From positions 16,616,001 to 16,680,000 of the forward strand of contig OZ024766.1 of assembly GCA_964016885.1 (NCBI GenBank): a DNA stretch of 64,000 nucleotides, given 5' to 3'. The position numbers and the translations under genes were made by a program. The stretch is from Eledone cirrhosa. Its lineage: Eukaryota. Positions 16,953 to 44,676 of this stretch are shown piece by piece. The notes beneath the pieces are model-generated. The model was not told where the DNA came from. It was given only the letters and a program-made list of their open reading frames with translations, and searched no databases. Position 1 is the first letter of the stretch. Each line of letters begins with the position of its first letter.

Positions 16953-17894
16953 TTATGGTTTCTTACCTGTATGGGTATATTTGTGTTTAGTTAAATAACT
17001 TAATTGAGAGAATGATTTACCACAGATATCACAGTGATGTGGCTTCTCACCTGTATGGATACGTAAGTGTTGAGTTAAGGGACTACTTTGAGAGAATGAT
17101 TTACCACAGATATCACAGTGGTATGGCGTGTCTCCTGTATGGATACGTAAGTGCTCAGTTAAGTAACTTCTTCGAGAGAATGATTTACCACAGATATCAC
17201 AGCGATATGGCTTGTCTCCTGTATGGATACGTTTGTGGCTAGTTAAGGCAGGACTTTGAGAGAATGATTTACCACAGATATCACAGTGGTATGGCTTCTC
17301 TCCTGTATGTATACTTTTGTGTCTAGTTACGGTACCACTTCGAGAGAATGATTGACCACAGATATCACAGTGATATGGCGTGTCTCCTGTATGGATACGT
17401 AAGTGTTGAGTTAAGGGACTACTTTGAGAGAATGATTTACCACAGATATCACAGCGATATGGCTTCTCCCCTGTATGGATACGTAAGTGCTCAGTTAAGT
17501 AACTTCTTCGAGAGAATGATTTACCACAGATATCACAGCGATATGGCTTGTCTCCTGTATGGATACGTTTGTGGCTAGTTAAGGCAGGACTTTGAGAGAA
17601 TGATTTACCACAGATATCACAGTGATATGGCTTCTCTCCCGTATGTATACGTTTGTGTCTAGTTAAGGTACCACTTCGAGAGAATGATTGACCACAGGTA
17701 TCACAGTGGTATGGCTTCTCTCCCGGATGTGTACGTTTGTGACTTGTTAATTTACTACTAACAGAGAATGATTTACCACACACATCACAGTGATATGGCT
17801 TCTCTCCTCTATCCTTTGACATCTCTTCTGTAATAGCCATATCTTTAGTCATTGTTTCACATTTAATCTTATTTTCACTCAATTTATTTTCCAT
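16953..17894 (-). CDS. C2H2 zinc-finger protein, 10 fingers (unit 2)
   Basis: 313-aa ORF = 33-aa leader + 10 x 28 aa. Confidence 0.92.
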
Positions 17895-18439
17895 AATAAT
17901 TCTTCTTCCCTTGGCAGAATTTACAGATGTTATTCTTTAATATTTTTCATATTATATTCCTAAAAAATATTTCTTCTGTTATATTTCCCTCAATTATGAT
18001 CTCAGTTAATACCTGAAGATGATGCAAACTTCTTTGTCATTGAAGCTGAGTTAAAATACAAAATATATCTCTCATATATATATACCACACAGTGAAGAAA
18101 AGGAATTTTGTCTTTAAACTCAGTTCTGAGGAAATATATCACAGTAATTCTGATAGATTTATATAAACAGTGTTATATAAGTTCTGTTTAAAAAGTTTTA
18201 ATCTTCAAATGATGATAAATAGAGGTGATGAATCCAAGATTGAAGATAATAATTTATCCTAATGTCATCTGATATTCTGAAATGAAAAAGAAACAGTATG
18301 AAATAATAGAGAATACTTAAGAAGCAGAGATAGATTTAACAGTGGAAATTTTACATCTATAAACCCTGGAAACTTTTTATTGAAAAATCAAATTATTTTA
18401 GTTTTTAATTAGTTACAAGAAATCTTTCTCCACACCTGC

Positions 18440-19370
18440 AACCATGAGTGTATCTGGGGTTCTTTTCTCTTCAGAGAGATGGATCCTCATGAGATGGAGA
18501 GAATACTTTGCTGATCTCCCAAACCCGATCACAACAGCATCTTCGGATGTACATGAGGTGAATCTGATAGCGGTGACTAATCTCTCGGAGGCTGAGGTCA
18601 CAAGAGCAATTAAAGAGCTCAAATGTGACCGACTCATGTGTGTCAGATGGCCTGGGTCTCTGAAATGGCACTCAAGCAAAGGCAATCGGGAGTGATAATC
18701 CCAATTTATAAAAAGGGACACACGAGAGATTGTTCCAAATAGAGAGGGATCACCTTGTTAAGACTCCCTGGTAAAGTATATGCAAAGTTTCTGGCAAAGT
18801 GATGTAGCGAGTCCAAGCTAGCTGATGGACAGTGCTGTTTTCTCCCTGGGTGCAACATAACCCACCAAATATTCACACTGTGGCAGGTCTTTGAGAAATC
18901 GTGGGAGTATTGCTAAGAGGTATATATTATCGTTTTATAGACCTTGAAAATGCACATGATCGCATTCTTCAGGACCTGCTGAGCATACAGGAGTTCCCAT
19001 GGGCAGCCAGTCTTAAACATCTCTGTTATAGGCTGCAGGACGATAATAACTAAGTGAGGGCTAAGAACAGAGCCCTGGTGGACACCAGACTACACTCCAA
19101 ATTATTCACTATAATTGTTTCTATTTTAAACACAAGGCCAGCAATTACCCAGTACATTACTGGTACTTTATTTTATCAACCCCGTATGGATGTAAGTCAA
19201 AGTTAACCTCGGCGGGATTTGAACTCAGATCATAAAGGGACGTAACTCTGTGCCTCAAAGCATGGTGTCCGACTCTCTACCGATACTGCCACTTCACTAT
19301 AATGAATGTTAATCCTGACATTGCTGACTGCTCTTCTATACATGGCTTTATGATCCTCTATACAAGACAT
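18440..19370. mobile_element. Opposed RTE-LINE fragments with nested SINE (19116-19292), unit 2
   Basis: Same composite as 8940-9770; TSD TTCACTATAAT. Confidence 0.8.
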
Positions 19371-41973: not shown

Positions 41974-42096
41974 ATAGGAAAATGTTTAACCCCGATGGCA
42001 GAACTCAAGCCATTTCGACGGTTATGTCTGGACTGTTTCCAGAAATAGCCGTCGAAACGGATTGAGCTCTGCCGTCGGGGTTAAACATTTTCCTAT
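41974..42096. repeat. 123-bp hairpin, unit 5
   Basis: Same inverted repeat. Confidence 0.9.
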
Positions 42097-42978
42097 TACC
42101 CGCTCTACTACCCCAAGTATTGAGTACTCTGGTGCGTATATGGTCCATCTGGTTCTTTACCACACCTCCTTTGTTATATATATATATATATAAAATTATA
42201 AGAAACGAAAGGAGCTGTGTGGTTACTGTAAACAAAGTTTAAGATGGTAATATGGATGAAAGGAGAAAATAAACCCTTCATCAGCTGTAAACCGAGATCA
42301 TAGATGTTTTGGCACATATATATATATACAGTGTTTTTAAATTCTGTACCATACAGATTTGTCAGCACAAGTCTTGGTTACAACTTCTACAAATAAAATG
42401 AAAGGAGAATAATTTCAGAACAAACAAGTTTTATTCAAAACATTAAGAACATTGGTGGCACTATTTTGGGTGAGTGATATGGTTTTTATCTTGTCTGATT
42501 GTGTTTCTGTTACATTAAGTAACCTTATGTTGGTACCACAACATTTAGAAAATGATTTACCACAGACATCACAGTGATAAGGTTCCTCTCCTGTATATGT
42601 TAGTGTCTAGTGAAGTCACAACATTTAGAGAATGATTTACTGCAGATATCACAGTGATATGGTTCCTTTTCTGTAAATGTTAGTGCTGAGTGAAGTGACT
42701 TATTTCAGAGAATGATTTCCCACAGATATCACAGTGATATGGTTTCTCTCCTGTATATATATGTTTGTGTCTAGTTAAGCTAGCTTTTATAGATAACAAT
42801 TTCCACAGATATCACAGTAATATGGCTTTTCTCCAGTATATATTTATGTTTGTATGTAGTTAATGTAGCAATACAAGAGAATAATTTCTACACAATATCA
42901 GTGGTATGGCTTCTCACTCATATGAATGTATTTGTGTCTAATTAATTTACAATTTTGAGACAATGAGATATGACTTTG

Positions 42979-44676
42979 TTATGGTTTCTTACCTGTATGG
43001 GTATATTTGTGTTTAGTTAAATTACTTAATTGAGAGAATGATTTACCACAGATATCACAGTGATGTGGCTTCTCACCTGTATGGATACGTAAGTGTTGAG
43101 TTAAGGGACTACTTTGAGAGAATGATTTACCACAGATATCACAGTGGTATGGCGTGTCTCCTGTATGGATACGTAAGTGCTCAGTTAAGTAACTTCTTCG
43201 AGAGAATGATTTACCACAGATATCACAGCGATATGGCTTGTCTCCTGTATGGATACGTTTGTGGCTAGTTAAGGCAGGACTTTGAGAGAATGATTTACCA
43301 CAGATATCACAGTGATATGGCTTCTCTCCCGTATGTGTACGTTTGTGTCTAGTTAATTTACTATTTTCAAAGAATGATTTACCACAGATATCACGGTGAT
43401 ATGGCTTCTCTCCTGTATGTATACGTTTGTGGCTAGTTAAGGTACTACTATCATAGAATGATTTACAACAGATATCACAGTGATATGGCTTCTCTCCTGT
43501 ATGTATACTTTTGTGTCTAGTTAAGGTACCACTTCGAGAGAATGATTGACCACAGATATCACAGTGATATGGCGTGTCTCCTGTATGGATACGTAAGTGT
43601 TGAGTTAAGGGACTACTTTGAGAGAATGATTTACCACAGATATCACAGCGATATGGCTTCTCCCCTGTATGGATACGTAAGTGCTCAGTTAAGTAACTTC
43701 TTCGAGAGAATGATTTACCACAGATATCACAGCGATATGGCTTGTCTCCTGTATGGATACGTTTGTGGCTAGTTAAGGCAGGACTTTGAGAGAATGATTT
43801 ACCACAGATATCACAGTGATATGGCTTCTCTCCCGTATGTGTACGTTTGTGTCTAGTTAATTTACTATTTTCAAAGAATGATTTACCACAGATATCACAG
43901 TGATATGGCTTCTCTCCTGTATGTATACGTTTATGGCTAGTTAAGGTACTACTATCATAGAATGATTTACAACAGATATCACAGTGGTATGGCTTCTCTC
44001 CTGTATGTATACTTTTGTGTCTAGTTAAGGTACCACTTCGAGAGAATGATTGACCACAGATATCACAGTGATATGGCTTGTCTCCTGTATGTATACGTTT
44101 GTGGCTAGTTAAGGTACTACTATCATAGAATGATTTACAACAGATATCACAGTGATATGGCTTCTCTGCTGTATGTATACGTTTGTGGCTTGTTAAGGCA
44201 TTACTCTGAGAATATGATTTACCACAGATATCACAGTGATATGGCTTGTCTCCAGTATGTACACGTTTGTGGCTAGTTAAGTGACCACTTTCAGAGAATG
44301 ATTTACCACAGATATCACAGTGATATGGTTTCTCACCTGTATGTATACGCATGTGGCTAGTTAATATACTACTTCGAGAGAATGATTTACCACAGATATC
44401 ACAGTGATATGGTTTCTCACCTGTATGTATACGCATGTGGCTAGTTAAATTACTACTTTGAGAGAATGATTTACCACAGATATCACAGTGGTATGGCTTC
44501 TCTCCCGGATGTGTACGTTTGTGACTTGTTAATTTACTACTAACAGAGAATGATTTACCACACACATCACAGTGATATGGCTTCTCTCCTCTATCCTTTG
44601 ACATCTCTTCTGTAATAGCCATATCTTTAGTCATTGTTTCACATTTAACCTTCTTTTCACTCAATTTATTTTCCAT
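42979..44676 (-). CDS. C2H2 zinc-finger protein, 19 fingers, one with C>R (unit 5)
   Basis: 565-aa ORF; I see only 2 residue differences from unit 3 (CAQ/CGQ, KFT/KYT). Confidence 0.92.

Follow-up and report, generated by a model that had tools for sequence, protein, structure and literature searches.

How neighbouring genes that are otherwise almost identical come to carry zinc-finger arrays of very different length is the question raised by a stretch of 64,000 nucleotides (nt) from the Eledone cirrhosa genome (assembly GCA_964016885.1, 3.0 Gb; contig OZ024766.1, here C27, positions 16616001-16680000), referred to below as the window. Seven minus-strand zinc-finger genes, spaced at 8.6-10 kb, lie in the window, and four of these, the genes of units 2 to 5 between window positions 16953 and 44676, combine recurring sets of fingers in arrays of 10, 14 or 19. 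A sequence-only reading of these genes had proposed that whole finger modules are shuffled combinatorially between paralogues, in the manner of the PRDM9 minisatellite, with a rapid turnover of binding specificity. The analysis presented here points to a simpler history, held with a probability of roughly 0.78, in which an array with 19 fingers came first and the shorter ones arose by four in-register deletions, each of whole fingers, via unequal exchange or slippage between repeats.

Structure and probable deletion history of the four arrays

Units 2, 3, 4 and 5 are single open reading frames (ORFs) of 313, 565, 425 and 565 amino acids (aa), that is, 33 + 28n with n = 10, 19, 14 and 19 fingers, and in each of them a C-X2-C-X12-H-X3-H pattern recurs every 28 aa after a leader of 33 aa. 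With the fingers lettered by their helix 7-mers (positions -1 to +6), the unit 3 gene (25539-27236, minus strand) and the unit 5 gene (42979-44676, minus strand) have the same helix string, ABCDEF-GFHIJK-GFHIJK-L, the unit 4 gene (34275-35552, minus strand) is without finger C and both F-H pairs and reads ABDEF-GIJK-GIJK-L, and the unit 2 gene (16953-17894, minus strand) reads A-GIJK-G'IJK-L'. The second G (G', RSGTVTR) and the last finger (L', QLSYLTK) of unit 2 are single-residue variants, and with these two exceptions the strings are those given in the sequence-only reading. Its statement that the interior changes by exact 84-bp blocks between fixed outer fingers was likewise borne out, as all differences in array length among the four genes are exact multiples of 84 bp and fingers A and L are present in all of them.

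Every finger type of the short genes also occurs in the long gene. Since nothing in the short arrays is foreign to the long one, the four arrays form a nested deletion series, for which module exchange between paralogues is not needed. The 19-finger form contains the block GFHIJK twice in tandem, at 25626-26633 on the minus strand in unit 3 (fingers 7-12 at 26130-26633 and fingers 13-18 at 25626-26129) and at 43066-44073 on the minus strand in unit 5, with coordinates that follow from the start codon and the lengths of the leader (99 nt) and of the fingers (84 nt each). The two 504-bp copies in unit 5 show 11 base differences. The marks that tell the first copy from the second (J1 ending in GEKP, K1 with YRC...GDTP, J2 ending in GDTP, K2 with YHC...GEKP) are common to all four genes, and the internal duplication therefore happened once, before the gene copies arose. 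Among outgroup genes at a flank distance of 1.9-2.5%, the adjacency G'-F-H' is present in five genes (three array types) and C-D-E in three genes, and in the gene at C27:15761449, fingers 7-9 match G, F and H at 97.6-98.8% identity. These adjacencies indicate that the 19-finger form is ancestral in these respects.

Under the deletion model, unit 2 is obtained from the unit 4 form by a 336-bp deletion of fingers B-F, with 0 mismatches and a breakpoint at nt 3-13 of the finger. Loss of the F-H pair gives 2 mismatches in the first block (best breakpoint nt 45-71) and 1 mismatch in the second (best breakpoint nt 72-102), and loss of C gives 4 mismatches. An in-register exchange between an internal finger i and a finger j of misaligned repeats would keep the head of the first and the tail of the last finger of the array, and because the outer ends would always be kept in this way, the first and last fingers would look fixed. 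If about 3 bp are bound per finger, the loss of 5 or 9 fingers would then both shorten and change the predicted site. The process would be near-neutral, a generic instability of tandem repeats rather than a selected hypervariability of the PRDM9 type.

The proposed shuffling between paralogues does not account for these four arrays as well as the deletion series does. True module exchange, in which ectopic gene conversion or unequal crossing-over between paralogues makes mosaic arrays, appears very unlikely here, as all differences among units 2 to 5 are losses relative to the 19-finger form and the junction in unit 2 fits a plain deletion. In favour of it, paralogues at a flank distance of about 2% share modules in other orders, for example J-G'-F-H'-x-K-L, and a distant copy of unit 5 is 99.66% identical to unit 3 vs 98.8% to unit 5, which suggests a history more tangled than simple duplication of neighbours. 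Within the four genes, G1 equals G2 in unit 5 and not in units 2 and 4, suggestive of conversion inside the array.

Age of the copies, cluster setting and a non-coding control

Pairwise flank identity among units 2 to 5 is 99.5-99.7% over 1.5 kb upstream, 99.3-100% over 430 bp downstream and 98.8-99.3% over the 2 kb further downstream, and the repeat units of unit 3 and unit 5 are 99.0% identical over 5.5 kb, with arrays that differ at only 3 of 1596 bases. Compared with these, the flanks of units 1 and 6 show about 97% identity. Judged by these identities, units 2 to 5 arose very recently as tandem copies of a single gene. The neighbourhood is present a second time 151-158 kb away, with the same arrays for units 1, 2 (with one extra helix substitution), 4 and 5, and all three array forms are found again at C27:16.77-16.83 Mb, where flank identity is 98.7-99.8%. 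The array pattern is thus a repeated structure rather than chance, because the same three forms recur at a second locus.

This recurrence also bears on whether the length differences could be an artefact of assembly, through a collapsed or expanded repeat or through alleles laid out as paralogues. The region is highly repetitive, being composed of near-identical 8.7-kb units and of segmental copies of about 150 kb or more, and the sequencing runs compared consist of short contigs rather than raw long reads. However, each of the three array forms is present in the assembly at two or more separate places that have their own flank substitutions and satellite lengths, the ORFs of units 2 to 5 are all intact and in register, and units 2 and 4 have point differences of their own; an artefact of this kind is therefore most improbable.

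The window belongs to a cluster of about 1.1 Mb (C27:15.75-16.86 Mb) with 99 ORFs of at least three fingers, 84 of which start with the leader. The fingers are canonical, with TGEKP-type linkers, and the genes comprise many head-to-tail paralogues with gain and loss of fingers, as in other tandem clusters of poly-C2H2 genes; arrays elsewhere in the cluster gain whole fingers as well as lose them. The cluster divides near C27:16.39-16.40 Mb into two arms that run in opposite directions, and is built of large segmental copies, with other gene series recurring at about 100-315 kb. Grouping at a flank distance of at most 1.2% sorts the 84 genes into 34 subfamilies, of which 27 have two or more members. 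Among these 27 multi-gene subfamilies a single helix string is found in 15 and two or more strings in 12, and block gaps are present in 9, with 22 gap patterns in all. The subfamily of units 2 to 5 has 4 gap patterns, which ties it with one other subfamily and places it behind one with 5; it is among the richest examples of block gaps, yet not special in the cluster.

A control for the rate of array change is provided by a non-coding 82-bp satellite that lies about 3.4 kb upstream of every gene and whose units are about 94% alike. Its copy number is different in every unit of the window (4.5-28.9), from 4.5 copies in the tract at 30635-31003 to 9.5-28.9 copies in the tracts at 828-3195, 11800-13676, 21296-22319, 38931-39709, 48069-49172 and 58349-60141, and the counts in the window agree with those of Tandem Repeats Finder. 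Each repeat unit also has 77-bp and 115-bp repeats. Across 33 independent pairs of nearest paralogues (flank distance at most 1.2%; arrays sliced in 84-bp register, as a regular expression misses fingers with a mutated cysteine), the number of finger units was unchanged in 27, whereas the copy number of the satellite was unchanged in 7. For every four to six point differences, the coding arrays show about one block event. The coding arrays thus change by whole units, but more slowly than a neighbouring non-coding repeat of the same period. Of the minisatellite behaviour that had been proposed for the genes, the change by whole 84-bp units was confirmed, whereas hypermutability was not. The slower change of the arrays fits the lower identity between fingers (84.5% vs about 94% in the satellite), which would damp the instability of the coding arrays, and perhaps also reflects selection, probably for an intact fold.

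Contact residues and the comparison with PRDM9

Amino-acid entropy between finger types is 2.3-2.9 bits at helix positions -1, +3 and +6 and at most 1.6 bits elsewhere. Codons 1-10 of the finger form a 30-base stretch that is almost invariant among 70 distinct fingers, synonymous sites included, and the helix and linker vary, in agreement with the sequence-only reading, in which variation was concentrated in the helix on a homogenised backbone. The cleanest of the deletion breakpoints, that of unit 2, sits within the invariant stretch. The ratio of nonsynonymous to synonymous substitution rates (dN/dS) between finger types is 1.38 at the contact positions -1, +2, +3 and +6 vs 0.46 in the backbone among the 70 distinct fingers of the window, and 1.86 vs 0.47 among the 28 distinct fingers of units 2 to 5, a contrast that compares old, non-orthologous fingers.

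The young paralogues give a different picture. Positionally homologous fingers of units 2 to 5 have 17 variable codons, 11 with nonsynonymous (N) and 6 with synonymous (S) changes, and of the 11 nonsynonymous codons, nine belong to the backbone or linker and a single one each to the contact positions and to +4. Within subfamilies across the whole cluster, 426 finger columns yield 75 N and 25 S changes when the gene g16044359, whose array is unrelated to those of its flank-mates, is left out; adding this gene brings the totals to 91 N and 29 S, with 28 N and 5 S at contacts. The contact N rate is 1.45 times the pooled S rate (Poisson p = 0.06), and 1.00 and 0.94 times the S rate without fingers bearing several changes, which may be conversions or misalignments; in the rest of the finger the corresponding ratios are 0.62, 0.50 and 0.42 for the full set and the two cleaner subsets. 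The per-position contrast in dN/dS that had been suggested as a check therefore holds between finger types, but contacts do not change significantly faster than synonymous sites among young paralogues, and rapid adaptive turnover of the contacts found no support in these counts. The plain reading of the sequences is that contact residues would be free to change and the fold would be mildly constrained, with positive selection neither shown nor excluded.

Several observations weigh against the deletion history or its near-neutral interpretation. Two separate F-H deletions with the same outcome in one lineage are not the most economical history, and the breakpoint windows of these deletions, which do not overlap, depend on one or two bases. 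The first G finger (G1) of units 2 and 4 does not fit a simple chimera with a G head and an H tail, since codon 21 is G-like and codons 20 and 23 are H-like. As an alternative for this part of the series, F-H may have been deleted once and the change then copied to the other internal block by conversion, or events may have been more complex. The lengths of satellites in the assembly are less certain than those of the coding arrays, which may weaken the control. At the contact codons, the share of N changes among young paralogues of the cluster is 28%, vs 14% of sites (p = 0.0015), and therefore some positive selection stays possible. In the full young set, the backbone shows no significant purifying selection (p = 0.086), and function is thus not demonstrated. 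Finally, transcript evidence did not emerge: none of the matching runs is recorded as RNA, and presumed-RNA runs of other organisms yielded only finger-sized pieces of about 42-83 nt (at a likeness of at least 97% or at least 90%), with no contig joining leader and array, which speaks neither for nor against expression.

For the comparison with PRDM9, the share of amino-acid diversity that falls at contact residues, P, serves as a measure (Baker et al., PMC5519329). P is 0.396-0.404 in units 2 to 5, vs 0.14 expected if diversity were evenly spread, and among the 84 cluster genes its median is 0.406 (range 0.18-0.47), with a median finger identity of 84.5%. In Table 1 of PMC5519329, complete PRDM9 genes have P values of 0.33-1.0 (human 0.687, mouse 0.910), and partial, slowly evolving PRDM9 genes have values of 0.16-0.33, with one exception at 0.524. 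The genome has an array of its own for comparison, at C22:11549856-11559855, where a PR/SET exon match is followed after 0.75 kb by an ORF with 39 C2H2 units (from about base 754); this PR/SET-linked array has a P of 0.473 and a finger identity of 91.3%.

The domain content of the cluster genes is that of zinc-finger arrays only. A Pfam scan of units 3 and 2 returned zf-H2C2_2 (4e-167, 19 stretches) and zf-C2H2 (6e-103), with no SET, KRAB, SCAN or BTB and only C2H2-type and other small zinc-binding families. KRAB and SSXRD were not found in the ORFs themselves, although upstream coding exons are possible; a genome-wide search for SSXRD (PF09514) gave no matches, but the control genomes were equally silent and the search is hence uninformative. 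The PR/SET family (PF21549) has 14 matches in the genome, 0 of them on C27.

Like PRDM9, the cluster genes have arrays of 84-bp units that change by whole units, with diversity focused at -1, +2, +3 and +6. Unlike PRDM9, their ORFs are without PR/SET, KRAB and SSXRD domains, they are many paralogous genes rather than one hypervariable locus, their fingers are less alike than those of the PR/SET-linked array of this genome (84.5% vs 91.3%), and their rate of change at contact positions is not significantly above neutral. A PRDM9-like hypervariable minisatellite, in which selection for new DNA targets drives a fast turnover of fingers and contact residues, is distinctly unlikely on this evidence. 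It would agree with P values that fall within the range of complete vertebrate PRDM9 genes and close to that of the PR/SET-linked array, with the raised dN/dS at contacts between finger types and with the significant contact share of N changes; set against these are the missing SET and KRAB domains, the single contact position among the 11 N changes between units 2 to 5, arrays that are more stable than the neighbouring satellite, and P values near 0.4 that are the norm of the whole cluster. The likeness to PRDM9 that had been proposed thus holds only in part, for the change by whole units and perhaps for the placement of diversity, and not for kinship. On the sequences compared, the cluster genes resemble PRDM9 arrays in degree, and a P of about 0.4 is the family norm here and not an outlier.

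Other features of the window, the leader and known systems

Some fingers and linkers of the four genes bear changes at conserved residues. The first zinc-binding cysteine of finger 15 of unit 3 (the second H, 25878-25961, minus strand) is changed to arginine (YHRDIC), and the second H finger of unit 5 (43318-43401, minus strand) has the same change; further hits on conserved linker or framework residues are TREKP and PAETP in unit 4 and a glycine to alanine change in G1 of unit 3. The 84-bp periodicity runs past each stop codon into decayed tails, whose translations show stops and frame changes: about five frame-broken fingers directly past the stop codon of unit 3 (25107-25538, minus strand), and equivalent tails on the same strand in units 2, 4 and 5 (16511-16952, 33843-34274 and 42547-42978).

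The three remaining genes of the window, all on the minus strand, differ more widely. Unit 1 (6961-8400) is an older paralogue with flanks about 97-98% identical to those of units 2 to 5, with which it has only finger A in common; its fingers number 16 by regular expression, and 15 units plus a remainder when sliced in 84-bp register. In unit 6 (52504-54787) the array is split into an 18-finger ORF (53168-54787) and a 7-finger ORF (52504-53121) in another frame, as computed from the coordinates, which looks like a first step towards the decayed finger tails found after stop codons. Unit 7 (63339-64000) is cut by the end of the window, and the full gene, at C27:16679339-16680364, has 11 fingers.

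Between the genes, 9 of the 21 stop-to-stop ORFs of at least 60 aa in the spacer between units 3 and 4 (those of at least 81 aa) were scanned, none with a Pfam family, and Rfam gave 0 matches in window positions 24500-34300. A pyrimidine run at 27237-27310 on the minus strand ends in AG, and this AG, some 70 nt before the start codon of unit 3, could be a candidate splice acceptor for an untranslated first exon. Contig-level runs labelled as this organism cover genes and spacers alike and are DNA-like. In these runs, positions 22674-22947, 28428-28701 and 29798-30071 have a very high summed contig depth, which marks high-copy interspersed repeats of the spacers. The target ANACNGNTAGTG, predicted for the G-I-J-K block with a crude recognition code, had 0 matches in the window vs 0.56 expected, which is uninformative.

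The leader that precedes the fingers is a charged sequence of 33 aa in the same ORF, with T at position 16 in units 2 to 5, and has no Pfam family. Leader and first finger together (61 aa) are conserved, with no fewer than 150 matches genome-wide that have 70-100% identity and are spread over 10 contigs or more; about 100 of these matches fall in C27:15.76-16.84 Mb. The dN/dS of the leader within the cluster is 0.87, and therefore no constraint is detectable at this depth. An Atlas look-up with the leader and first finger returned only generic clusters of chordate zinc-finger proteins (ZNFs) and was uninformative. By analogy with the FiNZ motif of cyprinid ZNFs, the leader may serve as an effector handle.

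Both the array changes and the clustering have counterparts in known systems. Vertebrate KRAB-ZNF clusters are described as undergoing duplication and deletion of fingers between paralogues, with degenerate fingers past an in-frame stop (PMC2865497). Tandem gene clusters, duplication and deletion of whole fingers and diversity focused on contacts are features reported for these vertebrate genes (PMC2865497 and PMC10547256) that are met again here, and the degenerate fingers after the stop are seen in units 2 to 5 too. The differences are that there is no KRAB-A or KRAB-B box here, its place being taken by the charged 33-aa leader in one ORF with the array, that the copies are far younger (flanks at least 98.8% identical) and that every unit contains the variable 82-bp satellite. 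In cyprinid fish, FiNZ is portrayed as a large, young and clustered ZNF family that is defined by a short charged N-terminal sequence (PMC10547256). The E. cirrhosa genes likewise have a short charged N-terminal sequence instead of KRAB (28 aa in FiNZ, 33 aa here), a likeness of description. FiNZ is encoded by a separate exon, whereas the leader and fingers here are in one ORF; a role in the repression of transposons is demonstrated for FiNZ.

A more speculative extension, and a rather unlikely one, is that the cluster is a KRAB-less cephalopod counterpart of the KRAB zinc-finger protein (KZFP) and FiNZ families, with the conserved leader as effector handle and with deletions and duplications of whole fingers and freely varying contact residues that would continually yield new DNA specificities, to be tried against young repeats, possibly including the satellite. 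The focus of diversity on contacts (P = 0.40), nearly as strong as in the PRDM9-like gene of the same genome (0.47), would be in keeping with it; as noted above, transposon repression is demonstrated for FiNZ only.

In coleoid cephalopods, C2H2 genes are reported to number from hundreds to thousands and to be grouped in tandem clusters on a few chromosomes, and the octopus-specific expansion clusters are given as containing 104-495 sequences (PMC12513265 and PMC9795677, in the parts concerned with these expansions). Those parts treat gene trees and expression, and not, as here, change at the level of fingers between paralogues. A literature search at the level of titles and the beginnings of abstracts found no publication on the finger-level dynamics of cephalopod ZNFs, and the peptide CDICGKSF had no occurrence in a literature text search.

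No new question is opened by the deletion series in units 2 to 5, as the process has already been described in KRAB-ZNF clusters of vertebrates, and cephalopods are known for large C2H2 expansions. As far as the sequences indicate, the locus would represent the ordinary behaviour of tandem zinc-finger clusters, in which the loss of whole fingers would change the predicted DNA site. What it offers is an unusually clean natural series, in which flanks differ by at most 1.2%, finger number varies between 10, 14 and 19, and single deletion events with their breakpoints can still be made out. It is thereby a test case for how much of a long zinc-finger array binding needs, and for how the pace of change in array structure compares with that of point mutation and with that of a non-coding repeat of equal period.

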